The notes beneath the pieces are model-generated. The model was not told where the DNA came from and ran no database searches. It saw only the letters and a list, made by a program, of their open reading frames with translations. This document shows, in pieces, positions 27,327 through 42,264 of a DNA stretch of 64,000 nt (position 1 is the first letter of the stretch; each line of letters starts with the position of its first letter). The DNA lies in the NCBI GenBank assembly GCA_048940925.1, contig JBHLOC010000025.1:6016-70015 (forward strand). Reading direction: 5' to 3'. This DNA comes from Promethearchaeota archaeon (GTDB lineage Archaea; Asgardarchaeota; Lokiarchaeia; Sigyniarchaeales; SOKP01). Both the position numbers and the translations under genes were made by a program.

Positions 27327-27426
27327 ATTAATAAATAACATGATAAAAATGAATTATATTTTAATATTCAAATCTTCAAAATTAAGTGTAATAATATAAT
27401 TTTAAAAAAAATAAAAAAGAATTATT

Positions 27427-28929
27427 ATGACAAGTACTAAAGAAAGTTTTGTAAAAGGGATTATAGAACCAAGTGTAAACGCTGTAGAAGCAGCTAAAAA
27501 GATCCTCGAAGCGGAACAAGTAAAGTTCGTGTTATGTGCTTTTACAGATGTTCGAGGTATTTTTCAGAGTTTTAGCTCTCCTGTTCATCATTTTTTAAAA
27601 GGAGATCAATATTTTGAAACGGGAATTGGTTTTGATGGGTCGAGTATACGAGGATTTAGAGAACTTCACACTAGTGATATGATTTTCTATCCTGATCCTC
27701 AAGCTTTATATATCCTTCCTTGGACGACCGGTTTTCAAAAAACTGCAGTTTTAATAGGAAATATACGTGAACCGTTCGGAAGTATAGAAGCTGCTGACTG
27801 TGATCCTAGAGGATATGTAGCGCAGCGTGCCATAGATAAAGCTTCAGAATTGGGCTATACATCTTACTTTGGACCTGAAATTGAATTTTTTGTTTTTAAG
27901 TCTATAGATCCAAGTAAGTTAGATTATGATATTTTTACCAGCCCAAAGGGAGGTGCAGGAGATAGTTGGGGCCCACCAAGAGTGAATCCCGTATCTCCCG
28001 AAACCGAGATTGGGGGGTATATATTAAGACCTAAAGAAGCATACTTTAGGAATCCTCCTGAGGATACTACTAATGGTTATCGTAACGATCTTACAAATAC
28101 ACTCGAAACAATGGGATATACCGTTGAGATGCATCACCATGAGGTCTCTACTAAAGGACAAGTTGAAATAAACTATCGTTATAGTGACCTATTGGACACT
28201 GCGGATAAAGTTCAGATTTACAAGCTTGCTGCACGAAATATTGCTGCTAAATATGGATGGATTGCAACATTTATGCCAAAACCAATTTATTTAGATAATG
28301 CTAGTGGTATGCATGTTCATAATTCAATGTTCAAGGATGGTGAAAATGCTTTCTGGGATCCAGATGATGATTATGCTGAGATTAGTCAGGAATGTAGGTA
28401 TTATATTGGTGGCCTTCTCGAACATGCTGAAGCATTAACGGCGATATGTTGCCCAACAGTCAATTCATATAAACGATTAGTTCCTGGATTCGAGGCTCCT
28501 ATTAATATTATGTATAGTCGAAGAAATAGATCAGCATTAATCCGAATTCCAGTGTATTTAAAAGGTGAAAAATACAAAAATAGAAGACGTATAGAATATA
28601 GGGGAGTTGATCCCTCAACAAACTCTTACTTTGCTTTTGCGGCAATATTAACGGCAGGATTAGATGGAATTAAAAAGAAGATTGATCCTGGTGACCCTGT
28701 AGATAAGGATGTTTATGAAATGTCTGAATCAGAGAAAAAGTCTGCTGGTGTGAAACAATTACCAACAACTCTAAAAGATGCATTGGACATTATGGAAACT
28801 GATTCAATATCAAAAGAAATTCTTGGATCTCATCTCTATGATGCCTTCGTAGAATACAAAACAAATGAATGGAATCAGTTTTGTCTTTATGTAACACCTT
28901 GGGAAATTATGAAATATTTAGACTACTAA
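27427..28929 (+). CDS. glnA: Glutamine synthetase, divergent type I with a ~30-residue insertion
   Basis: FDGSSIRGF, PEIEFF, HHHEVS.KGQVEINYRY, ASGMHVHNS, NSYKRLVPGFEAP, RNRSALIRIP. 500 aa versus 450 aa for the second copy. Confidence 0.9.
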   Translation: MTSTKESFVKGIIEPSVNAVEAAKKILEAEQVKFVLCAFTDVRGIFQSFSSPVHHFLKGDQYFETGIGFDGSSIRGFRELHTSDMIFYPDPQALYILPWTTGFQKTAVLIGNIREPFGSIEAADCDPRGYVAQRAIDKASELGYTSYFGPEIEFFVFKSIDPSKLDYDIFTSPKGGAGDSWGPPRVNPVSPETEIGGYILRPKEAYFRNPPEDTTNGYRNDLTNTLETMGYTVEMHHHEVSTKGQVEINYRYSDLLDTADKVQIYKLAARNIAAKYGWIATFMPKPIYLDNASGMHVHNSMFKDGENAFWDPDDDYAEISQECRYYIGGLLEHAEALTAICCPTVNSYKRLVPGFEAPINIMYSRRNRSALIRIPVYLKGEKYKNRRRIEYRGVDPSTNSYFAFAAILTAGLDGIKKKIDPGDPVDKDVYEMSESEKKSAGVKQLPTTLKDALDIMETDSISKEILGSHLYDAFVEYKTNEWNQFCLYVTPWEIMKYLDY

Positions 28930-29309
28930 TTAAATTTTACTTATTTTTTGATAATTCAAATCTCCAAACCATAAAAATGAAAAAGAGATATAATATTAGT
29001 TGCGAAAGGCATTTAGACGAGAAAAATTTTTTAATTGAATACTATTGTTGTGAATACTCTTGAGGCGAGATATTAATAAATAGGTGATTAATTTATTTTT
29101 CAGATCAGAAACACAATTTAGAGTTAATTAGTCTGAAATAATCTAAACTTCAGGAAGGTTGAAAAGTGTGGCAGATAGTAAGAATTGTGAAAGAAATGTA
29201 ATTAAACTCGAGAATTCGATGGCAATTACATTCACCCAAGAATGGTTTAATAAAACTCACTTGAAAGATATTTATATCAAGAATATTAGAAGCAAAATTG
29301 CGATAGAAA

Positions 29310-29897
29310 ATGAATGAATTAGAAAATAATCACACGATAAATGACAGGATAACTATTGCAATAGATGAGCAAACAAAACAAATATTAAATCAGTTAAATA
29401 ATCACTCGGAGAGTTCTCGATCTGAAACAATAAGAAAAGCAATTAAATTTTATCATAAATTTAAGAAAGTTTTTGATCAAAAAGAAAAGGGGGTATCTGC
29501 TCAGGTAAACACTTACTTAGAATTACTTTCTAATGGAGAACATATTATTTTAGATGTAGATCATTATCTAACATTTTTAAAATTTATTGAAAATTCCCCG
29601 AATAAAGATCAGTTTGATGATTTCAATAAATCAATTGGTAGGGCTCATGCAGAAGAATTTTCTCATGATCTTAATATAACTACAGTCCAAAAAGTAGTAG
29701 AACGCCTTGAAGCATGCAATTTTTTCAAAATAATTAAAGATTCATCTAACAAATGTACCCTACTTTTAGGATCTGACATTCAAAAGAACTTTATTAAGAC
29801 TTTTTTAGAAGAAGTCTTAAAAGGTATGGGTTTTAAAGTAAGTATTAACGAAGGATTTTCTAAATTAAAGATAATTATAGAGGATTTTTCAATTTAG
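29310..29897 (+). CDS. Ribbon-helix-helix (CopG/NikR-like) domain protein with a ~140-aa C-terminal domain
   Basis: ITIAIDEQTKQILNQL...SRSETIRKAIKFYHKF fits the RHH strand-helix-helix pattern. Confidence 0.55.
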   Translation: MNELENNHTINDRITIAIDEQTKQILNQLNNHSESSRSETIRKAIKFYHKFKKVFDQKEKGVSAQVNTYLELLSNGEHIILDVDHYLTFLKFIENSPNKDQFDDFNKSIGRAHAEEFSHDLNITTVQKVVERLEACNFFKIIKDSSNKCTLLLGSDIQKNFIKTFLEEVLKGMGFKVSINEGFSKLKIIIEDFSI

Positions 29898-30175
29898 AAT
29901 TCTTCATTCTTTTAAATACAATCTTCAGGATTTTCAAATTGATATATATAATTTTCTCTGCTGCTGTTCTTCGATAAATAACGCTATATTTTAACTTTGG
30001 TTCGAATGTAATCTCAAGTTGATTATTCTCTTCATTATCTTTCATCCCCGAATTCGATCTATTGTCCAATCTAAGCTGTTATTATAAATTACGTCATTTT
30101 GATTTTTTCGCTCACTGATTTGAAAACATCCAAAGTATTGTAAGTACCTAAATAAAGAAAAAAATTACTTTTGAA

Positions 30176-30517
30176 CTATAAAATATCGTCTCCCTTTTCT
30201 CTCGTTCTTATTCTTATTGCGGTTTCGATAGGCATAATAAAGATTTTTCCATCCCCAGGTTTTCCTGTTTGGGCTTTTTCAATAATAGTATCTACAATTT
30301 CATCAATATTTATTTTCTCACTCACTACAATCTCAAGTTTTAATTTATCAATCCATTCTATGCAATATTTACCAGACCTATCTACCAGTTTTATTCCACG
30401 CTGGTGTCCATGACCTTTTACTTTATGGATACTCATACCTTTTATGTCTTTTTCAAATAATCCAGATTTAATTGCTTCTAATTTCTCCGGTCGTATAAAA
30501 CACTCTATTTTTTTCAT
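30176..30517 (-). CDS. glnK: P-II nitrogen regulatory protein
   Basis: 113 aa. MKKIECFIRPEKLE.., T-loop region KGHGHQRG.., C-terminal TGKPGDGKIFIMPIE.AIRIRT. Immediately downstream of amt. Confidence 0.9.
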   Translation of the reverse strand: MKKIECFIRPEKLEAIKSGLFEKDIKGMSIHKVKGHGHQRGIKLVDRSGKYCIEWIDKLKLEIVVSEKINIDEIVDTIIEKAQTGKPGDGKIFIMPIETAIRIRTREKGDDIL

Positions 30518-30535
30518 CTTATTTTTATACCTCCA

Positions 30536-31735
30536 TTATGCTTTTTCTCCGTGGATTGAAATATCTATACCTACGTATTCTTCTTCTTCAGATGCTCTCA
30601 AACCAATTAGTTTATCGATCACTTTCGCAATTACCCAAGTTATTACAAAAGTATATCCAATTGTCGCTATAATTCCTACAGTTTGAATCCATACTTGTCC
30701 AGGGTTGCCTGATATTAATCCTGTAGCCCCCACACTTGCAAAAATTCCGGTAGCAATCGCGCCCCAAATACCTCCCCATCCATGAATAGCCCACGCATCT
30801 AAAGATTCATCAATTTTCGATTTTGAACGCCAAGAAAGTATACCATAACAAATTATTGCAACCACAGCCCCGATTATCAATGCGACCCACGGTTGAACAA
30901 AACCAGCAGCAGGAGTAATTGCGACCAGCCCCGCTAAACCACCCGTTGCTAATCCAAGAGTACTAAATTTTCCCGTTTTATAATATTCTATAATCATCCA
31001 AACTAAGGCTGCTACACTCGCCGCTAATTGTGTATTAAACATAGCTAATACAGCGGTACTGTCTGCAGCTAAAGCACTCCCCCCATTAAACCCAAACCAT
31101 CCTAACCAAAGTAGTCCCATTCCTAGTAATACATTAGGAATATTTGAAGGTTCTATCGATTCTTCTTGATATCCTTTCCTTGGCCCAATTACCAGGGCAA
31201 CTGCTAAGGAGGCAAATCCTACATTTACATGCACAACGGTACCTCCAGCGAAATCCAGAGCTCCTAGAAAACCTAACCACCCACCATCTCCCCAAACCCA
31301 ATGGGCTATAGGAGAATATACTATTATCAGCCAGATTGAGATAAATATCATGAATGCTTTAAAATTAACTCTCTCTGCGAAAGGACTTGCTATAATCGCT
31401 ACAGTAATTATTGCAAACATCAATTGAAACGCCATATATAAAAGATGTGGTATTGTATCAGAATATACTGGATAGGCTTCTGTTCCTACTCCGAAAAGTG
31501 CAAGGAAATTAAAGCCTCCAATAAATCCACCACCCATATCGGGAGCAAAAGCCAAACTATAGCCAATTATGAACCAACCAACTGTTACTATTAATATTGA
31601 GACAAAACACATTGCCATCATATTTATAATATTCTTCTTACGTAGCAAACCCCCATAAAAGAATGCTAACCCCGGAGTCATAATAAAAACTAACCCAGTA
31701 CATATCAAGATAAAAGATATATCTCCACTTGACAA
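30536..31735 (-). CDS. amt: Ammonium transporter
   Basis: LVFIMTPGLAFFYGG, DFAGGTVVHVNVG, GWFGFNGGSA, IHGWGGIWGAIATG. TTG start. Confidence 0.95.
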   Translation of the reverse strand: MSSGDISFILICTGLVFIMTPGLAFFYGGLLRKKNIINMMAMCFVSILIVTVGWFIIGYSLAFAPDMGGGFIGGFNFLALFGVGTEAYPVYSDTIPHLLYMAFQLMFAIITVAIIASPFAERVNFKAFMIFISIWLIIVYSPIAHWVWGDGGWLGFLGALDFAGGTVVHVNVGFASLAVALVIGPRKGYQEESIEPSNIPNVLLGMGLLWLGWFGFNGGSALAADSTAVLAMFNTQLAASVAALVWMIIEYYKTGKFSTLGLATGGLAGLVAITPAAGFVQPWVALIIGAVVAIICYGILSWRSKSKIDESLDAWAIHGWGGIWGAIATGIFASVGATGLISGNPGQVWIQTVGIIATIGYTFVITWVIAKVIDKLIGLRASEEEEYVGIDISIHGEKA

Positions 31736-31928
31736 ATTTATCCACTTTAATAATATTTTAATTTTATTAATTATGGTTTCATTTGATTTAGATTTTGTAT
31801 TCTAAAACTCAAATATAATGAAAAACATCGAATATAAAAGGTTAATTGAGAAAAAAAATTATAGATTAAGATCTTTTAGCTAATTTTATTAACGATCATG
31901 TATTGAATAACAATAAGTTCTTTCATTT

Positions 31929-32081
31929 TATGAAAAAATATGAAATACTCATAAAAGATTGAATAAATAAATAATAATAAAGAAAAAATATCTAAGTTTT
32001 TACAATATCATGAGAAAATTAAATATATGTACCAGGTAAATTTCACTATTAGTTCATAATATAGTTTATATGAAAAAATAT
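31929..32081 (+). repeat. Exact 13-nt direct repeat TATGAAAAAATAT (two copies) in the amt / glnA divergent spacer
   Basis: Copies at 31929-31941 and 32069-32081. A looser third copy (TAATGAAAAACAT) lies near 31816. Confidence 0.6.
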
Positions 32082-32127
32082 AATTGAGTATAATAGAATA
32101 TATTGAAAAAAAATAAAATGAAGAGAA

Positions 32128-33480
32128 ATGATTGAAAAAGACGATCCAAAAAGGAAAGAGATTTGTGATAAAGTAATAGAGAAGATTAAAGAAGAGGATA
32201 TAAAATTTATTTATCTTCAATTTACTGATATCCATGGAATTATTAAATCTTTTGAAATAAACTCCAAGAGGATTGAGGATATTTTTGAAGTAGGTGAGAA
32301 TTTCGACGGGAGTTCTATAACGGGTTACGGAGCGATTGAAGAGAGTGATAAAGTTGCACTTCCTGATCCTAGCACATTTTATCTTTTGCCTTGGAGAAAA
32401 GAAAATAAGGTTGCAAGGGTAATTTGTGATATCTATAAACCTGATGGAAAACGGTATGAAGGAGACCCTCGCAGAATATTACAAAGAGCTGTCAATAAAG
32501 CAAAAGAACTAGGTTATGATTACTATTGTGCTCCAGAAATGGAGTTCTTCATATTAACCCCAGATACCGAAAAAGCATTTAAGCCCTCAGATATGAGAGG
32601 ATATTTCGATTATGATCCATATGATGTTAACGAAATAATAAGGTATAGAATTGCAGAATATTGCGATGCAATGGGTATTTCTGCAGAGTGTGTACATCAT
32701 GAAGTTGCATTTGGACAGCATGAGGTAGATTTCAGATATGATGAAGCAGTAAATACAGCAGATAACACAGTTACAATAAAAACGATAGTTAAAACTGTCT
32801 CGGCGCAACATAATTTATTAGGAACATTTATGCCTAAACCTTTTGATGGGATTAATGGATCAGGCATGCATGTACATCAATCTTTATGGAATAATGGGAA
32901 TAATATCTTTTATGATGAAAATGATAAAGATCATATTTCGATTATCATGAAAAGATGGATTGCAGGTCAATTAAAACACGCTATCTCGATGTGTGCTGTT
33001 TTAAGTAGTTGGCCTAATTCTTATAAGAGATTAGTTCCTGGATTTGAGGCTCCAGTTTATCTTGCTTGGGGTTTTAGGAATAGATCTCCTTTAATCAGGG
33101 TACCAGATTTTCATAATAAATCCACCGCAGCTAGATGTGAAATTCGTTGTCCAGATCCTGCTGGTAATCCTTATCTTCAATTTGCTGTTCTTCTCGCTTC
33201 AGGATTAGATGGGATTTTATCAGAGGAAATTGACATTCCTGAACCAACCGATAGAAATGTATATCATTTATCTTCAAAAGAAATGGAAAAAGAAGGTATT
33301 ATTTCATTACCAGGGAGTCTTAGTGAAGCTTTAAAGTATTTTAGAGATTCAGAATTTATGAAGGAAGTTTTCGGAGAATTAGCATTTAAAAACTACTATT
33401 ATGCCAAATTGGAGGAATTTGATAAATACAGAGTCGTAGTGAGCGAATGGGAGAGAAATAGATATATAACTCATTTGTAG
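32128..33480 (+). CDS. glnA: Glutamine synthetase type I (canonical archaeal length)
   Basis: FDGSSITGY, PEMEFF, VHHEVAFGQHEVDFRY, GSGMHVHQS, NSYKRLVPGFEAP, RNRSPLIRVP. Confidence 0.95.
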   Translation: MIEKDDPKRKEICDKVIEKIKEEDIKFIYLQFTDIHGIIKSFEINSKRIEDIFEVGENFDGSSITGYGAIEESDKVALPDPSTFYLLPWRKENKVARVICDIYKPDGKRYEGDPRRILQRAVNKAKELGYDYYCAPEMEFFILTPDTEKAFKPSDMRGYFDYDPYDVNEIIRYRIAEYCDAMGISAECVHHEVAFGQHEVDFRYDEAVNTADNTVTIKTIVKTVSAQHNLLGTFMPKPFDGINGSGMHVHQSLWNNGNNIFYDENDKDHISIIMKRWIAGQLKHAISMCAVLSSWPNSYKRLVPGFEAPVYLAWGFRNRSPLIRVPDFHNKSTAARCEIRCPDPAGNPYLQFAVLLASGLDGILSEEIDIPEPTDRNVYHLSSKEMEKEGIISLPGSLSEALKYFRDSEFMKEVFGELAFKNYYYAKLEEFDKYRVVVSEWERNRYITHL

Positions 33481-33481
33481 G

Positions 33482-33492
33482 TTTCTTTTTTT
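33482..33492 (+). terminator. Oligo-T stretch after glnA (archaeal-type terminator candidate)
   Basis: TTTCTTTTTTT directly after the TAG stop. Confidence 0.35.
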
Positions 33493-33706
33493 CATTGAAA
33501 TAGTAATTCAGTCAATTTAAAACATAGAAATATTTTATATTTAATTTAAAATCTATTTTTCTTTTAATTATATTATGTTTTGCTGAATGCAGAACAAAAA
33601 TATTAGAATTAAGGGTTGTAGTTAACATAAAGCATTTCAATTTATATAAAATAAAGATTTATCAAATTATGTTCATCCAAAATTTTTCAAAATTAAGGTT
33701 TTTTAA

Positions 33707-33865
33707 ATGAAAGAGGTTACTAAAATATTAAAAGGAAATATCAATAAATTGGTTGATCTAATCAATGAATTTTTAAGAAAGAATGCAGATAAGAATGCCG
33801 AATTGGTTTCTGTTGCTAATTTTGGAGATCGCAAATATTTAGCATTCCTTCAATATGATGTATGA
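33707..33865 (+). CDS. Small hypothetical ORF (52 aa) inside the segment between the two glnA 3'-end copies
   Basis: ATG preceded by AAGG. Translation is MKEVTKILKGNINKLVDLINEFLRKNADKNAELVSVANFGDRKYLAFLQYDV. Below the ORF-track size cut-off. Confidence 0.3.
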   Translation: MKEVTKILKGNINKLVDLINEFLRKNADKNAELVSVANFGDRKYLAFLQYDV

Positions 33866-34253
33866 TAAATCCAAGATAAACAATAAAATTCAGATTATAT
33901 AATTATCAATCCTCTTTTTTTGATTAAATTTTCTAAAGAAATTTCTGATCAGCAATTTCAGATCTTTAATGGGATCTCTTCTAAATGCGTACGATTAGAA
34001 AAAGAAAACCTTATAAAACAGGCTAAAAAAATTAACTAAGAGAAAGAAAAGTTAGAACTGGAGAAAAGAAAAACAAAATTGAAAGACAGAAGGTTTTTGA
34101 TAATTTTGGGAATTGCATTGCTTGGGATCACTGGTGTTGGCACCACTATCGTCATGAGTATCCACCATTGTAGTAGATATGGATGAACAAGCAATAGTAA
34201 CCACAAGAGAATAAAAATATTTATAAAATGGATTACAAAGGAGATAGAATTAC

Positions 34254-34322
34254 ATGGATTTTTCACACAAATTAGTGGTAGTAAGTGAATGGGAAAAAAA
34301 CAGATATATAACTCATTTGTAA
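34254..34322 (+). other. Diverged duplicate of the glnA 3' end; forms a 22-codon mini-ORF with its own SD
   Basis: MDFSHKLVVVSEWEKNRYITHL* versus the glnA C-terminus EEFDKYRVVVSEWERNRYITHL*. The last 47 nt are 41/47 identical, and 5 of the 6 differences are synonymous. AAGGAG lies 10 nt before the ATG, and a T-rich stretch follows the stop. Confidence 0.5.
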
Positions 34323-34446
34323 TCCTTTTTCTTGACTTTTTTTATATAGCTTTTAAGATTAATTTAAAGTCTTTATACAACTTATTTTTATATATATAAA
34401 ATTTATACAAAAAACAAGATAATAATATATTTTGAGTGTTTAAAAA

Positions 34447-36096
34447 ATGCGAAATTCAAAATTAAAGGTTTTAATTGCTCAAATTAATCCTATTGTAGGA
34501 GATATTAACCATAACGCAAAAAAAATAATTGATATTATAAGAGACAATCAGGATTGTGATATTATAGTTTTTCCTGAAATGGCACTTGTTGGCTATCCAA
34601 TTATGGATCATATTTATGATCCAGTGATCAAAAATAGAAATCTTGATGCTATTAGAAAAATCAAGCAAACCAAAACGCAGGCAACAATAATTTTAGGAAC
34701 TTTTACAGAACCAGAAAATTTAAAGGGAAAAATCCAGCGGTTTTATAATTCTGCTGTTATAATCGAAAATAATGAAATAAAAGCTTACGTCAATAAACGC
34801 TTATTACCAAATTATGATATATTTGATGAGAGAAGATATTTTTCATTTGATGATAAATACGAACCTTTGGAACTCAAGGGATATAAAGTAGGAATATTAA
34901 TATGTGAAGATATATGGGATGAGCATTATGATATAAAAGTAGCAAGGAATTTAGTTTCTAATGGTGCTGAAATTTTAATCGTTATAAATGCTTCTCCGTA
35001 TCACATAAATAAGTTTAGGTTAAGAAGTGATTTAGTTAAGGAGAAATCTAACAGTCTTTCAGTCCCTGTCATATATGTAAATATGGTGGGTGGTCTTGAT
35101 GAAATAGTATATGATGGTCAAAGTTTTATAACAAATAAGTTTGGTCAGATAATTTTTAAAGCAAAAGCATTTGAAGAAGATATCTGCTCATTTGAAGTCC
35201 CTATGAAAGATAATGAGCTAATTAAAGAAAAAGATTATACAATTGAATGGAGAGATGAAGCGATAAATGCTCTAACATTAAATTTATATGATTATTATTA
35301 TAAAAGTGGAATTTTTGATGGTGTCGTTTTAGGGCTAAGTGGAGGGATTGATTCAGCTTTTACTGCTTATATTTGTGATAAAGCTCTTGGTTCAGATAAA
35401 GTAACAGCTATTATGATGCCCACAAAATTTACTTCAAAAGAAAGTATTAATCTTGCCCGCAACTTATGTGAGAATTTAAACCTTAAGTATATAATCCATC
35501 CTATTGATGAATTATTTGATGTTTATGAGACTAATTTAGAAAAAAATCTAGGAAATTTACCTTTTGATATAGCAGATGAGAATCTACAAGCAAGAATTAG
35601 AGCAAATGTTTTGATGTATTATTCAAATAAATTCAATTGGTTATTAGTTTCCACTGGTAATAAATCCGAGATTGGAGTAGGTTATTGTACTTTATATGGT
35701 GATACATGCGGAGGGAAAAATGTTCCTGGAGATCTTTTAAAAGTTCAAATATATGAAATCTGTAATTGGATTAATAAAGAGAAAGAAATAATTCCTAAAG
35801 GGATTATTGAAAGACCTCCAACTGCAGAATTACGAGAAAATCAAAAAGATAGTGATTCATTACCTACTTATGAAATCCTTGATGTAATATTAGAGGAAAT
35901 AATTGAGAATGGAATTGGTTCTGAATTTACAAATTTGAAAAGTAAGGGTTATGATATTAATATAATCAATAAGGTAAGAAACCTTTATTTAAATTCAGAA
36001 TATAAACGCAGACAATTAGTTCAAACAATTAAAGTGAGTGAAAGTGCTTTTGGAATCGGGAGGAGATATCCTGTATTAAAAAAAATAAAATTCTAA
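34447..36096 (+). CDS. nadE: Glutamine-dependent NAD+ synthetase (nitrilase-like glutaminase + NadE synthetase domains)
   Basis: N-terminal CN-hydrolase domain (FPEMALVGY, ILICEDIW), then PP-loop GLSGGIDSA and the synthetase domain. Confidence 0.95.
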   Translation: MRNSKLKVLIAQINPIVGDINHNAKKIIDIIRDNQDCDIIVFPEMALVGYPIMDHIYDPVIKNRNLDAIRKIKQTKTQATIILGTFTEPENLKGKIQRFYNSAVIIENNEIKAYVNKRLLPNYDIFDERRYFSFDDKYEPLELKGYKVGILICEDIWDEHYDIKVARNLVSNGAEILIVINASPYHINKFRLRSDLVKEKSNSLSVPVIYVNMVGGLDEIVYDGQSFITNKFGQIIFKAKAFEEDICSFEVPMKDNELIKEKDYTIEWRDEAINALTLNLYDYYYKSGIFDGVVLGLSGGIDSAFTAYICDKALGSDKVTAIMMPTKFTSKESINLARNLCENLNLKYIIHPIDELFDVYETNLEKNLGNLPFDIADENLQARIRANVLMYYSNKFNWLLVSTGNKSEIGVGYCTLYGDTCGGKNVPGDLLKVQIYEICNWINKEKEIIPKGIIERPPTAELRENQKDSDSLPTYEILDVILEEIIENGIGSEFTNLKSKGYDINIINKVRNLYLNSEYKRRQLVQTIKVSESAFGIGRRYPVLKKIKF

Positions 36097-36272
36097 CGAA
36101 TAAGTAAATAATCATCATAATTACTTTGAAGAAAATGATGTTTTACTTGGTTATATGAGGAAATGGAAGAGAATTGAAGATAATATTCATTTTCACAATA
36201 TTTATATAATATTTTTACACTAGTATATTGAATATTTTTATTAGTTTGATATGATAATCTTAAGGGTGATTT

Positions 36273-38078
36273 TTGATTTCAAGTGTAAAAGAAAGTTATA
36301 GAAACATAAAGGAAAAGTATATGAGTATAAATGAATTTCACAGGAATATAATTTTAACAATTTTTATTGCTATTATCTGTTTATTTGTTGGATTATATAT
36401 AATTTTTGTATTTACTCGTCTGTTACCTGTAGATCCTGTGGCTTCTTATTTAGCTGCTAGGGGGATACATAATCCTGCAGAAGGAGCTTATCAACAAATG
36501 AAATGTCAGTTAGGGTTTTGTGATTCTATAACAGTACAATATTTTAAATATATTAGCGATTTTTTTACAGGTAATTGGAGGATATCAGTTTCTTTATATT
36601 CTGGGACAAAAGTTACTGATATATTTGGAGAAACAATTCCAAAAACATTGGGATTAATTTCATTACCGTTGATAATAGGAGGAGGATTCGGATTTTTCCT
36701 AGGAAGGATTTCATCAAGAAACAGAGGTACAGGGAAAGATAAAATTATTCAAGTATTTAGCATTTTAGGAATATCACTTCCTATATTTTTCCTTTGCGGA
36801 ATATTTCAATATGCTCTATGTTATGAGTTAAAGATATGTGAACCTACAGGAATTTCAGCGTTACCTATAGAAATCTTAACTTTCACCCTAACAGCATTTA
36901 TTACTTGGCAAGTTCGCTCCTATTTGACTAATAAATCATATGAAAAATCGCTACTTTTAAATACAATTAAAACAGGAATAAGTTTTAGTTATATCTTTAT
37001 GTTTTGGTTATTAGTAGAAGTTACTTTTAACATATATGGATTTGGTACAATTTTAATATATGCAATTTCGCAGTATGATTATTTTCTTATAAGGGGAAGT
37101 TTGTTCTTAATAATTATAATGTTTGTTATAGTTACAATAAGTTCTAATTTGATCTTCAGCATCTATATGTCTCGAAGAAGTAAATCCTTTGAATATAATA
37201 CAGAACCGAAATTTGATGATACAACAGACAAAGGAGAGAATAGTATTGAAAGCAATCCTGAAGAGAATATAAAAGAGTTTTTACGACGTAGATTGAAATC
37301 TCCTTTCTTTATCCTTGGTGCAATTTTAATAATATTTTTTATTTTTATTGCAATATTCCCTCAATTGATGACACAATATTCTTTATCAGAGACTTTAAAT
37401 CCTTCTTCTGATTTATGGAACCCTCCATCTTCAGAACACCCTTTGGGGCAAACAGTATCAGGACTAGATGTATATGCATTAATAATTTGGGGTATACATG
37501 ATTCAATAATAGTAGGTTTTTTAGCCGTTCTTATAGGTTTGATAGGGGGAAGTATATTCGGATTTATTGCTGGAAAATTTAATCGATGGGGATATAGGAT
37601 AATTATGGGGCTCATGATATTTTTCTATATTTTTCCAGGAATAGTTCTTGTTATACTGTTAATAGATTCTAGTCTACTTTTCTATGGACCTTTCTATTGG
37701 TATGGGTCATTGTTTATTGGGATTTTATTAATTCCTAATTTCACGAGAGTAATTGCTAATGCAATTTCAGGGGAAATTAATATACATAAAATAAGTAAAG
37801 CTGTAATTAGTCAAATCCCGTTAAATTTCGCTATATTTATCGTAATTTATACCACAGTAGGGTTTTTAGGATTATACACATTATATTCTGTTTTAGAGCT
37901 ACAAAATCAGCCAATCCAATTAGGAAGTATTGTTAATATGGGAAGTCAAATACTTCCTGATGCGCCATGGGCTAGTTTCTGGCCAGGACTTACAATTTTT
38001 GGTATAGTTCTGAGTTTTCTTCTTTTTCATGTTGGATTACAGGATTACCAATCGAAGAATCGAATTAAAATTGAATAA
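36273..38078 (+). CDS. Fused DppB-like + DppC-like ABC permease, degenerate coupling loops
   Basis: The N-terminal half is paralogous to 23797..24828 (ARGIHNPAEGAYQQMKCQLGFCD vs AAGIHNPAQGLYQQMKCQLGLCD). A charged linker follows. The C-terminal half begins with the OppC-type EHPLGQTVSGLDVYALIIWG. No recognisable EAA-loop consensus in either half. The ATG at 36321 is a likelier start than the TTG at 36273. Confidence 0.7.
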   Translation: MISSVKESYRNIKEKYMSINEFHRNIILTIFIAIICLFVGLYIIFVFTRLLPVDPVASYLAARGIHNPAEGAYQQMKCQLGFCDSITVQYFKYISDFFTGNWRISVSLYSGTKVTDIFGETIPKTLGLISLPLIIGGGFGFFLGRISSRNRGTGKDKIIQVFSILGISLPIFFLCGIFQYALCYELKICEPTGISALPIEILTFTLTAFITWQVRSYLTNKSYEKSLLLNTIKTGISFSYIFMFWLLVEVTFNIYGFGTILIYAISQYDYFLIRGSLFLIIIMFVIVTISSNLIFSIYMSRRSKSFEYNTEPKFDDTTDKGENSIESNPEENIKEFLRRRLKSPFFILGAILIIFFIFIAIFPQLMTQYSLSETLNPSSDLWNPPSSEHPLGQTVSGLDVYALIIWGIHDSIIVGFLAVLIGLIGGSIFGFIAGKFNRWGYRIIMGLMIFFYIFPGIVLVILLIDSSLLFYGPFYWYGSLFIGILLIPNFTRVIANAISGEINIHKISKAVISQIPLNFAIFIVIYTTVGFLGLYTLYSVLELQNQPIQLGSIVNMGSQILPDAPWASFWPGLTIFGIVLSFLLFHVGLQDYQSKNRIKIE

Positions 38079-39143: not shown

Positions 39144-39218
39144 ATATATAATATTTCTCTAATTTTTTTTGGGTTTTAATTAGTATCAGATCTCTGTTTT
39201 TCCTTATCCATTGACAAA

Positions 39219-40931
39219 TTATAAATTTTTTAAAACTCCTGACATATGCGCCCAACTGTTACCCCAATTTTCCCAACCTCGTGAATCAGAATTCCATACA
39301 TCAATTTCAAAACCGGAAAATAACCAAGCTACGGGGTAAAGTTCTTCAATAAGACGTTCTTGAATTTTATAATATAATTCTTTTCTTACCGTTTCATCAG
39401 TTTCCACCAAAGCCTTGTCAATCCATTGTTGGACAACTGTGTCATTAGTATGTTGATCATTAACAAACCCATCGCTTTTACTTGAAAATAGGGGATTTAT
39501 GTTGGTACTAGGATCATTAAAATCTGGACTCCAATACCTAGACCACCACAATGCATCTGATGTGGAATTCACAATAAAATCATCTCTTGTCCTAGGAATG
39601 CGGTCTATATGTATTCCAATCTGTTTGAGATTTTCTTTGACCACCAGTGTAAGATTTGCTGTGTACCACCCAGCTCCTGGCATACCAAAGAGATAGGAAA
39701 TATTGTATGTTTCAAGTGGATTGGTACTACTTGCTATTGCTTCCCACTCATTTCCAGAAGTGATATTATCATTAGCACTGAGACCTGCCGTTCCAGGCCA
39801 CTTAGCGTCTATAAGAATTTGTCTTGCTTTTGAAACGTTGTAAAAAGGTACATCAAAAGCAGTCCAGTTAGCATAAAGCAATCCTTTTGAGATTGGCGAC
39901 ATTAACCTTGGTACTGATATATTTTTCGGATAAGAATATTTTTCAAAAATGGAAGTATAATTTAAAGCATATGAAATTGCTTTCCTCATAGTAACATTTA
40001 TTCGATTATTATCCATTCCAAGGTATTCGATAGATGTGACTTCACGTATATTGAAAATAATATTTGGATCCCTGCTATAATTTTCAAGATATAAAATCCT
40101 ACCTGGAGGAGAGATCATAGCAAAATGAGTTTCTCCATATAAGATTCGTTCACTACAGTTTTCCATGGATTCAGTTGAGCTAAAGTCCGTATATAAGAAT
40201 ACAAATCTTTCAATTCTAGGCTCAGGTATGCCCCAATATTTATGATTAGCAATTATCGTAGTATTTTTATATCGTATATTGGATTCAAATTTATAAGGTC
40301 CTGTTCCAATTAATTTTTCATTATCATTAAGGAATCTATTAGCAGGAGTTGATGCGGGTGATAAAATATGGGCTGATAAATGGGTTAATAGTGCCCTAAA
40401 TGGAACGTAGGGCCTATTCAACACAAATCTTACAGTGTAATCGTCCAAAACTAGAGTTTTATTAAGAATAGGTATACCATCTGCATGATACCATATATAA
40501 GAATACCCATGAGGAAAAGTCATATTAGGCAATAATCGAAGTAGTCTATCAAAATTCCACTTGACTGCTGTGGCGTTAAATGGTGTACCATCATGAAATT
40601 TAATCCCCTTTCTAAGAGGACAGGTAAAATTTAGACTATCCTTGCTCCATTCCCCTTTTAATGCCAAGTATGGAACATTATCATAATAGTTACCGGTCCA
40701 TTTTTCGTTAAATAATGGCTCAACAATTTGACTTGGCACGAGATCTTGATCAATGTAATATGGATTGAGAGAGTCAATACTTTCCAAACCTCCAAAACAC
40801 CCAAAAATGAAAGTTTTCTCCTCGCTTTGACCCAATAAAAACACAACACCACCAACTATTCCTGCGATTGCTACAGCTCCAATTAATCCTCCGACCACGA
40901 TAATTTTATGTTCAGCAAAAATCTTCTTCAA
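39219..40931 (-). CDS. ABC transporter substrate-binding protein, family 5 (peptide/nickel), membrane-anchored
   Basis: 570 aa. N-terminal TM anchor (IIVVGGLIGAVAIAGIVGGVVFLL) and overall SBP_bac_5-like blocks (KFHDGTPFNA, GTGPYKF, LGMDNN). TTG start. Confidence 0.8.
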   Translation of the reverse strand: MKKIFAEHKIIVVGGLIGAVAIAGIVGGVVFLLGQSEEKTFIFGCFGGLESIDSLNPYYIDQDLVPSQIVEPLFNEKWTGNYYDNVPYLALKGEWSKDSLNFTCPLRKGIKFHDGTPFNATAVKWNFDRLLRLLPNMTFPHGYSYIWYHADGIPILNKTLVLDDYTVRFVLNRPYVPFRALLTHLSAHILSPASTPANRFLNDNEKLIGTGPYKFESNIRYKNTTIIANHKYWGIPEPRIERFVFLYTDFSSTESMENCSERILYGETHFAMISPPGRILYLENYSRDPNIIFNIREVTSIEYLGMDNNRINVTMRKAISYALNYTSIFEKYSYPKNISVPRLMSPISKGLLYANWTAFDVPFYNVSKARQILIDAKWPGTAGLSANDNITSGNEWEAIASSTNPLETYNISYLFGMPGAGWYTANLTLVVKENLKQIGIHIDRIPRTRDDFIVNSTSDALWWSRYWSPDFNDPSTNINPLFSSKSDGFVNDQHTNDTVVQQWIDKALVETDETVRKELYYKIQERLIEELYPVAWLFSGFEIDVWNSDSRGWENWGNSWAHMSGVLKNL

Positions 40932-41163
40932 TTTAGGAAATTTCTTCTTATCTTTAGGTTTTCCTATTTCATTTTCACCCTCAAAATTAATTTAAAAAAT
41001 ATATGGTATCTATATTGAATTTTAATATAAGTAATAATTCATTAATTGAATTATCGAGTTATTAAATCTTACGATCATATAAAAAATAACGTAAGGTTGA
41101 GATATTACTTCAATTAAAAGTATCTCTTATCTAAATAAGTGAAATATTACAAAATTTAGGGAT

Positions 41164-42171
41164 GTGATTTGTACCATGGTGAACAAAAGAATAGTAGCAA
41201 TTATTCTTGTACTTATTTTTGGTTTTAGTATGACTATCTCTATTCCTATTATTATTCTTTCAGCTGGTTTCTCACCTTTAGTTACAATTGTGGAAACAAT
41301 TAGATTTGAAGATACAAAATATAACTCTTCTGCTGTTGAAGAATTAAATCTTATTGCAGACGTAGGGAATATTAAAATCCAATATATTACTTTGCCAGTT
41401 GAATATTGCGCAATGATAGAAGTTAATTTTGACATGGTTGGGTATAACCTCTTTGGTAGAACTTCTTCTTATTATTTCAATTTTCCTGAAAATAAGAGCT
41501 TTAATAATTTATTCAATTTAGAACTACAATCAGACACAGATTGGTTTGATACTTCAAAATGGATTAAGCAAAATGTAAGTATTGTTGTGTCTATTAATTC
41601 AAACATCCTATTTAATATTAATACGACTATAAGGGAAGAGGGGGATGTTAATATCTATGTCTCAGGCGGAACTATTATCAATAATATTGATGTAAACATT
41701 AAAACAGGTGACATTGTATATGATTTAATTTTTTGTTCAATGAGAGGAAATATTATTGGAAATGTTGATTCAGGGGATATTACTTTAAAGGCTAATAATG
41801 TTAAATACACTCAAAATAATATATGGAATTTAACTAATAATAAAGGTAAAATTGCTCTTGATATAATTCAAACTAGGCTTATGGGTGCTAATTTGACGGG
41901 TACAGGAGAATCAAATTCAGGAAAAATAATCTTAAAATATCGGGATTATTCATCTGATATTGGAGCAATATTCAAATTTTACAATTCTTCGGAGGTTGAT
42001 TGGCATACTTTAGATAATGTTTGGAGAGATTTTAACGGACCAATTCCTCTTGGGCATAACGGGGCGATATTTAAATCCTATGATTTTCCAAACAATTTTA
42101 ACTATGATTTTTCCTTTTTTATAGCATATTCAAATCCCAAAAAATATAAGATAAACCTTACCAGTGTTTAA
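41164..42171 (+). CDS. Membrane-anchored extracytoplasmic protein with beta-helix-like repeats (DUF4097-like by eye)
   Basis: N-terminal TM helix, then repeated GD[IV]x[IVL] turns (GDVNIYVSGG, GDIVYDL, GDITLKAN, GKIALDI, GKIILKY). The ATG at 41176 is the likely true start. Confidence 0.45.
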   Translation: MICTMVNKRIVAIILVLIFGFSMTISIPIIILSAGFSPLVTIVETIRFEDTKYNSSAVEELNLIADVGNIKIQYITLPVEYCAMIEVNFDMVGYNLFGRTSSYYFNFPENKSFNNLFNLELQSDTDWFDTSKWIKQNVSIVVSINSNILFNINTTIREEGDVNIYVSGGTIINNIDVNIKTGDIVYDLIFCSMRGNIIGNVDSGDITLKANNVKYTQNNIWNLTNNKGKIALDIIQTRLMGANLTGTGESNSGKIILKYRDYSSDIGAIFKFYNSSEVDWHTLDNVWRDFNGPIPLGHNGAIFKSYDFPNNFNYDFSFFIAYSNPKKYKINLTSV

Positions 42172-42264
42172 AAAAAATATAATCTTATTTTATTATATTA
42201 TTTACTTGTCATAAGAATATTTAATAAGTCTATTTAGGTTCTAAAAAGCTAATTTATTATTATA

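Follow-up and report, generated by a model that had tools for sequence, protein, structure and literature searches.

The glutamine synthetase (GS) gene glnA in a 64-kb stretch of DNA from a Lokiarchaeial (Promethearchaeota) Asgard archaeon (contig JBHLOC010000025.1; the whole stretch is called the window below) is followed, 842 bp downstream, by a second and much shorter copy of its own 3' end. Comparison with related genomes suggests that this distal copy is probably the displaced native 3' end of glnA, a non-functional relic left behind as a recombination scar. Each segment of the locus can be assigned to a lineage type, relatives have an empty site at this position, the DNA filling the site is a patchwork of unrelated pieces and the whole arrangement is contiguous in independent assemblies.

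Two glnA ends of different ancestry

The glnA gene (32128..33480, plus strand) encodes a type I glutamine synthetase of 450 amino acids (aa) in length (TIGR00653 GlnA of NCBIfam, 496 bits), and its closest solved structure is the GS of Methanosarcina mazei. The proximal copy of the repeat (33433-33480, plus strand) lies within the replacement 3' end of this gene, and the distal copy (34275..34322, plus strand), called the stub in the following, consists of 15 codons and a stop codon. In the best ungapped alignment (33432-33479 with 34274-34321) the two copies are identical at 42 of 48 nucleotides (nt), and in the reading frame (33433-33480 with 34275-34322) at 41 of 48; both end in the same 20-nt 3' core (AGATATATAACTCATTTGTA). 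The second-best match of the 48-mer in the window reaches 29/48, and a composition-based binomial tail multiplied by the number of positions puts the probability of a fortuitous 42/48 match somewhere in the 64 kb at about 3e-12. The duplicate that the initial annotation had noticed is therefore real and far above chance in a formal assessment. Its count of codon differences is also borne out, with five synonymous changes and one AGA to AAA change (R to K), to which a difference in the stop codon (TAG in the proximal copy, TAA in the stub) has to be added. The weaker similarity that it described over about six further codons upstream is at chance level, since a hand count over the ~30 nt preceding the repeat gives 12/30 identities with the proximal copy and 9/30 with the relative L102, where about 30% is expected. 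The glnA homology of the distal copy thus begins at about 34272-34275.

The locus was compared with 80 species-level genomes encoding a close relative of this GS, all of them metagenome-assembled genomes (MAGs) of Promethearchaeota (Lokiarchaeia-type Asgard). The backbone of the window is nearest to the relative L023, with 81.6-90.1% nt identity on both sides of the locus, and L102 (a JGI contig) is similarly close (90.0% in glnA). In both relatives the glnA–nadE interval holds a spacer of ~122 nt and nothing else, and the single glnA ends found there (L023 7310-7352 and L102 3826-3868) are each matched by both copies in the window. By this comparison, which the initial annotation had proposed, the window is longer by ~0.8 kb of DNA that lies between the two repeat copies. 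A second GS tail was found in none of the 80 genomes in a six-frame motif scan and in none of 12 further metagenome loci (0/80 and 0/12), and no stub was seen in any other locus among more than 100 examined.

We use 'B type' for sequence of the L102/L023 kind and 'A type' for sequence of the L002/L003/L032 kind. The distal copy runs straight into a B-type spacer and nadE, as in L023 and L102. This spacer (34323..34446, plus strand), which holds the T-runs of the old glnA terminator and the presumed nadE promoter, is identical to the L023 spacer at 88 of 111 positions (z=11.0, not equalled in any of 500 shuffles), as compared to z=0.0 against the proximal spacer, and blastn aligns 34279-34436 with L023 7310-7465 at 78.6% identity (E 9e-31). 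The nadE gene (34447..36096, plus strand; NCBIfam NF010588, 601 bits), encoding a glutamine-dependent NAD+ synthase of 549 aa, is likewise of B type, with 87.8% nt identity to L023 and a synonymous divergence (dS) of 0.41 from it; nadE and the genes downstream of it follow L023 and L102 at dS 0.35-0.41. Because the spacer of the distal copy matches the L023/L102 kind and is still joined to nadE, the distal copy is best identified as the native end of glnA.

The end of the working gene has the other affinity. A B-to-A switch is located between the informative sites 33399 and 33405 (maximum chi-square 25.7, 0 of 2000 permutations). Among the sites where L102 and L032 differ, 74% of the 149 up to 33399 are B-like and 14 of the 16 from 33405 onwards are A-like, and the fraction of A-like sites rises from 0.26 on the left of the switch to 0.88 on the right. 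The replacement 3' end (33402..33480, plus strand), comprising approximately the last 26 codons, is nearest to L032 and L002, and the protein sequence of the proximal tail is identical to that of both. Up to ~33400 glnA is itself of B type, like L102: its proportion of synonymous differences (pS) from L102 is 0.22-0.47 in codons 1-405, similar to that of nadE (0.36), and rises to 0.65 in codons 406-450. Beyond the stop codon lies a fragment of an A-type glnA–nadE spacer (33481..33577, plus strand), including the oligo-T run after glnA. It matches the L002 spacer at 74 of 89 positions (z=10.7; blastn 76.6% over 94 nt, E 2e-13) and those of L003 and L032 with z=4.7 and z=2.7, as compared to z=0.2 against the window's own distal spacer and z=-0.3 against L023. 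In L002, L003 and L032 this kind of spacer stands between an intact glnA and nadE; the fragment in the window stops ~27 nt short of the position where nadE starts in A-type genomes. With A-like sites from ~33400 onwards and 97 nt of A-type sequence after them, the working glnA ends in ~26 foreign codons, and the spacer downstream of it is foreign as well.

A breakpoint at codon 143 of glnA, taken from the comparison with L023, was rejected, as the closer relative L102 exposed mosaicism of L023 itself instead. Between the glnA genes of L023 (6001-7350) and L102 (2517-3866), pS is 0.28-0.30 in codons 1-120, ~0.6 in codons 181-360 and 0.04 in codons 406-450. The L023 gene is thus mosaic with respect to L102, which indicates that recombination within glnA recurs among these lineages.

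Two simpler origins of the arrangement have to be considered. The samples hold several related Loki glnA genes, and many partial glnA contigs with 5-10% differences were seen, as would be needed for an assembly chimera of two co-occurring strains or species. The arrangement is, however, spanned by single Logan contigs from independent public runs, four studies being represented. In run X1 a contig of 1398 nt covers 33447-34844 with no difference, and in run X2 a contig of 2423 nt covers 32422-34844 and is identical across 33380-34470, so that contigs of independent runs and studies join the glnA tail, the insert, the stub and nadE; runs X6, X8, X9, X11 and X12 cover the locus in pieces. The arrangement is real DNA and not an assembly artefact, and we see practically no chance of a chimera. 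If the glnA tail had been duplicated in tandem in situ around an insertion, either alone or together with its spacer, and the copies had then diverged in place, the direct repeat that flanks the extra DNA would be accounted for. Such a history is highly improbable, because the two spacers are mutually dissimilar (z ~0) and each has its orthologue in a different lineage (z=10.7 and 11.0). The tails differ in the same way: the proximal one is nearest to L032 (3 differences), whereas the distal one is nearest to L004 and L010 (4-5 differences), with a spacer of the L023 group.

The strain sampled in run X2 differs from the window at 21 positions within glnA 32454-32586 (133 nt; six amino-acid changes), and its contig shows 16 further differences up to 33330 and none over 33331-34844. 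Either recombination within the population has left a patch here or the Logan contig is chimeric.

The patchwork between the copies and its possible history

The initial annotation had described the DNA between the copies as a 52-aa open reading frame (ORF), a transmembrane ORF broken by an in-frame TAA at 34037 and otherwise AT-rich filler. Both reading frames are present, and the interval is not filler throughout. After the A-type spacer fragment come 53 nt (33578..33630) without match in the compared loci, the window, phages or plasmids, and then a small-gene cassette of 309 nt (33631..33939, plus strand) made up of a TATA-like promoter region, the 52-aa ORF (33707-33865) and a T-rich 3' flank. 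The ORF has nine homologues of 52-53 aa with 75-90% identity, and its ratio of replacement to synonymous differences (pN/pS 0.12-0.20) indicates that it is a conserved small-protein gene under purifying selection. DNA homology of 82-85% is confined to 33631-33939, with sharp edges ~75 nt on either side of the ORF. The cassette is found in at least four other genomic contexts, for example between the genes for acetyl-CoA hydrolase and an archaeal histone, and its copies (L093-L099) retain 90-96% nt identity between contexts, suggesting that it behaves like a wandering mini-cassette. No flanking repeats of at least 20 nt were found around it in these other contexts; duplication of a gene tail is therefore not a signature of the cassette. 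An AlphaFold model of the 52-aa protein predicts one helix and a beta hairpin, at a pLDDT of 64 that is too low for a fold search.

The next piece (33941..34168, plus strand) comes from the interior of a gene whose product, 133 aa long, has a zinc ribbon and transmembrane helices, and covers residues ~10-86. An in-frame TAA (34037-34039), the loss of most cysteines and the absence of both ends mark it as a pseudogene. Its intact homologues P0011 and P0012 (E 1e-13 and 2e-12), which have an N-terminal four-cysteine zinc ribbon followed by transmembrane helices, are the only ones found in a collection of 5.8 billion proteins (loci L100 and L101) and match no Pfam or NCBIfam family. By tblastn the identity is 48.8% over residues 3-86 (E 2.6e-24) and is strong only from 'EISDQQF' onward. 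A 133-aa gene upstream of glnA in L102 and L103 was examined as the parent of the fragment and turned out to encode an unrelated protein of equal length. The last piece is junction DNA (34169..34271), containing a TATA-like box (TTTATAAA, at 34220), the motif AAGGAG (34238-34243), and an ATG (34254) with the first six codons of a frame that reads into the stub; upstream of ~34272 it has no homology to glnA. No significant remnant of nadE or of the rest of glnA was detected in the interval by blastx, tblastx or shuffled local alignments (z 0.1-1.4), and 'MQNKNIRI' and TTCAAAATTAAGG, tried as remnants of a nadE start, gave matches that were not significant. The ORFs of the interval belong to no Pfam or PHROG family.

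These observations are consistent with the following history. The ancestor would have had glnA, a spacer of ~122 nt and nadE, as L102 and L023 still have, and ~0.87 kb of DNA would have been spliced into the 3' end of glnA. The left end of the incoming DNA, carrying ~26 glnA codons and 97 nt of spacer from an A-type lineage (L002/L032-like), would have recombined with the resident glnA by homology at ~33400, keeping the frame and giving a complete GS. Its right end would have been joined illegitimately at ~34272, 48 nt before the resident stop codon, with the loss of ~30 nt of resident coding sequence, and the resident last 15 codons, terminator, spacer and nadE would thereby have moved 842 bp downstream. 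The remainder of the insert would be a patchwork of the 52-aa cassette, the internal fragment of the 133-aa gene and two short further pieces. Once displaced, the stub would have begun to drift, as its R to K change at an otherwise invariant arginine suggests.

One homologous and one illegitimate junction are the most likely combination. The left junction lies inside homology, at the 33399/33405 switch, with the A-type spacer beyond it; at the right junction (~34272), the putative illegitimate one, there is no glnA homology on the left and ~30 nt of native coding sequence are missing. We infer a single event, this order of joining, and a pathway of the kind of homology-facilitated illegitimate recombination (HFIR) or of templated patchwork repair; since the filling consists of at least four unrelated pieces, the latter fits as well as HFIR. 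HFIR is known from E. coli conjugation and from bacteria with natural competence (PMC3240628). As in HFIR, one end is anchored by homology (in glnA, ~33400), and the other would have been joined without it (~34272), foreign DNA (~0.87 kb) being gained at the cost of a short resident stretch (~30 nt). Unlike in HFIR, the insert is a patchwork of several pieces and not one donor segment, and the process is read from its product alone. To our knowledge, HFIR has not been demonstrated in Asgard archaea.

The product also resembles scars of other origins. Attachment of e14 or phage 21 in the icd gene of E. coli leaves an icd C-terminal pseudogene. In type VI secretion (T6SS) loci of Vibrio cholerae, orphan effector ends and immunity genes are left by sequential displacement (PMC5361080). 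The glnA locus shares with both an in-frame replacement 3' end with mostly synonymous differences and an original end that survives downstream as a pseudogene fragment. In contrast to e14, no integrase or prophage is present at glnA, and in contrast to the T6SS effectors, GS is a housekeeping enzyme and not a polymorphic toxin, and nothing points to a changed function of its new end.

Neither the donor nor the source loci of the two short further pieces were found. An exact look-up of the window GS returned no closer relative or donor, a metagenome scan with NadE returned nothing closer than 80% aa identity, and a search with the C-terminal part of GS retrieved L102 (92%) and no A-type donor. 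In the MAG DZ1B.338 two different contigs (L014 and L073) both encode a GS of this type. Loki genomes with a pair of glnA loci of this sort may therefore exist and could supply tails of foreign type from within, although a binning error is also possible.

An integrative element was the origin favoured in one of two readings in the initial annotation, according to which an element inserted into the 3' end of glnA, supplied a replacement end, left the original end as the distal repeat and then decayed. We, too, find that a replacement end was supplied and that the original end was displaced while keeping its native spacer and nadE; a decayed integrative element is not supported. In that explanation the attP site of an element targeting the glnA 3' end would have carried the replacement end, the proximal copy would be attL and the distal one attR, and the integrase and most of the element would have been deleted later. 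Direct repeats with an identical core do bound DNA that is absent from relatives, with an empty site in L023 and L102, and the gene is restored in frame; the occurrence of the 52-aa cassette in several genomic contexts would suit an element too, as would a 3'-truncated gene fragment beside the stub if an internal deletion had followed. A recombinase search (Pfam and PHROGs on the ORFs of the interval, Pfam on the neighbours) turned up neither an integrase nor any other gene of an element, be it inside the interval or up to ~10 kb away on each side; the neighbouring genes encode GS, PII, Amt, NadE, ABC transporters, an AsnC regulator and a metallo-beta-lactamase-fold protein. The interval has no similarity to phages or plasmids, and Rfam and tRNA scans of the window returned nothing, so that there is no tRNA-type att site nearby. 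The DNA adjoining the replacement end is the chromosomal glnA–nadE spacer of A-type genomes that have no element there. Reciprocal att recombination would give hybrid arms, whereas here the two flanks of the core agree in type within each copy (A-A in the proximal and B-B in the distal one). The switch at ~33400 also lies ~30 nt upstream of the point where the stub begins, and the exchange as it stands is therefore not reciprocal. The filling is a patchwork of unrelated pieces, and the reads showed no excision joints. A joint skipping from 33428 to 34281 in run X8, considered as an excision product, came from the glnA of another species (L011 type) mapping across both copies. Taken together, we regard the element remnant as unlikely.

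The stub as a predicted peptide

The stub can be read as the end of a mini-ORF (34254-34322, plus strand) in which six junction codons, the ATG included, precede the GS-tail codons, giving a predicted 22-aa peptide (MDFSHKLVVVSEWEKNRYITHL). The second reading in the initial annotation was that this peptide is retained as a micro-protein. In such a case it would be translated, mimic the C-terminal helix of GS, modulate the assembly or activity of the enzyme and be kept by selection, which we consider very unlikely. A variant with equally little to recommend it is that of a co-opted tail, for which the junction DNA would have supplied promoter, ribosome-binding site and start codon, and whose peptide would tune GS through the inter-ring contacts of the dodecamer. 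That such a peptide competes with these contacts or supplements them, a micro-protein born from a recombination scar, is just as doubtful.

The sequence features named in the initial annotation are all present: the frame is intact, the ATG at 34254 is preceded at 10 nt by AAGGAG, resembling a Shine-Dalgarno (SD) motif, and a T-rich run that could serve as terminator follows the stop codon; the TATA-like box at 34220 can be added. Fifteen of the 16 GS-derived codons (stop included) are unchanged or synonymous, and conservation of the tail motif W-E-x-x-R-Y extends to the M. mazei enzyme. The first six codons and all of the expression signals lie, however, in junction DNA of unrelated origin, and the T-run is the former terminator of glnA, which L023 and L102 have kept. 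Of the 43 long ORFs in the window, 12 are preceded by an SD-like motif, as compared to a background of 12%, and TATA-like 8-mers occur at 0.9 per kb. A predicted RNA hairpin (34205-34350) would pair the SD-like region upstream of the mini-ORF (GGAUUACAAAGGAG) with the stop region (CUCAUUUGUAAUCC); with a minimum free energy of -25.1 kcal/mol, z=-2.4 and 2 of 200 shuffles equally stable, this structure is weak and possibly due to chance.

The synonymous bias between the copies is fully accounted for by ancestry. The copies are orthologous tails of two lineages that diverged within full-length, constrained GS, and mostly synonymous differences are thus expected without any selection on the stub. 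Counted as synonymous/replacement codon differences, the proximal tail shows 3/0 against L032, 4/0 against L002, 5/0 against L010 and 6/0 against L004, and over all pairs of GS tails 67% of the differences are synonymous. The sole replacement in the stub, WE-K in place of WE-R, strikes an arginine that is invariant in the tails of 79/79 relatives, as early neutral drift would produce. The stub occurs in one species only among the more than 100 loci, and contigs from the runs holding the locus show no population variation in it. The retained micro-protein is therefore unsupported, and the mini-ORF most likely arose by chance when the junction was formed.

The precedent invoked for it was sP26, a 23-aa protein of M. 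mazei reported to interact with GlnA1 (bioRxiv 10.1101/2020.05.06.080432; PMC11957540). The stub peptide is of similar size and its proposed target is likewise an archaeal type I-alpha GS, and the likeness, judged by published descriptions, ends with these two points. The sP26 gene has a locus of its own, between MM_2083 and MM_2084, its transcript is leaderless and induced by nitrogen limitation, and the protein is conserved across Methanosarcina, whereas the stub is confined to one species. The cited papers give no description of sP26 as GS-derived, and two cryo-EM studies did not observe stable binding of sP26 to GS (PMC11957540, PMC10651883).

Several points weigh against a displaced and non-functional native end and have to be set beside the evidence for it. 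In the zone 33354-33399 A and B sites are mixed, and the reference types rest on two genomes each. As no donor was found, it is assumed that a single event took place. Insertion of an integrase-dependent element into the gene end would likewise give an identical 20-nt core and an exactly restored frame, and the wandering of the 52-aa cassette implies some element-like mobility in at least one piece. The mini-ORF does start with an ATG and is preceded by an SD-like AAGGAG and, 34 nt upstream, by a TATA-like box; a T-run follows it, and no public RNA run holding the sequence was found, which leaves room for its expression.

A reshuffled nitrogen cluster

A second scar at a gene end lies 1.4 kb from that of glnA. 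At 32009-32048 a nadE of L060 type is reduced to its initial ~36 nt (ATGAGAAAATTAAATATATGTACCAGGTAA), which read as an ORF of 9 codons and are joined to the final 87 nt of a nadE–glnA spacer, likewise of L060 type; L060, L062, L057 and L058 have a full nadE at this position, between amt and glnA. The nadE 5' stub stands at the end of a 4.7-kb nitrogen block (27417-32089) that most relatives lack, L023, L102, L001 and L002 among them, and that resembles L060 and L062 at 84-90%. Its genes encode another GS, 500 aa long (27427-28929), a protein with an RHH domain that may be a regulator (29310-29897) and, both on the minus strand, PII (glnB, 30176-30517) and Amt (amt, 30536-31735). In the window it is this 500-aa GS that follows the spacer found ahead of glnA in L023, and nadE itself lies upstream of glnA, downstream of it or elsewhere depending on the lineage.

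Gains and losses are seen farther out as well. Window positions 36097-38068 are absent from L023 and hold a fused permease-like ORF of 601 aa (36273-38078) that is present in L102, and positions 39171-42250, with a solute-binding protein gene and a 335-aa ORF, are also absent from L023. Turnover by insertion and deletion around the locus is frequent.

The two scars, the mosaic glnA of L023 and the shifting position of nadE together indicate that the nitrogen cluster of these archaea is reshuffled by both homologous and illegitimate recombination. The stub would be a pseudogene fragment of a well-understood kind, which annotators should not call a gene. It also carries a caution, as purely synonymous differences are no evidence of selection on the shorter copy if the two copies stem from different lineages. 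The scar, of little importance in itself, has some value through a breakpoint mapped to a few bases and an empty site kept in relatives, which make it a dated and well-resolved case in which Lokiarchaeial lineages have recombined within a gene of core metabolism. The wandering 52-aa cassette and the mosaic nitrogen cluster are of more interest than the stub itself.

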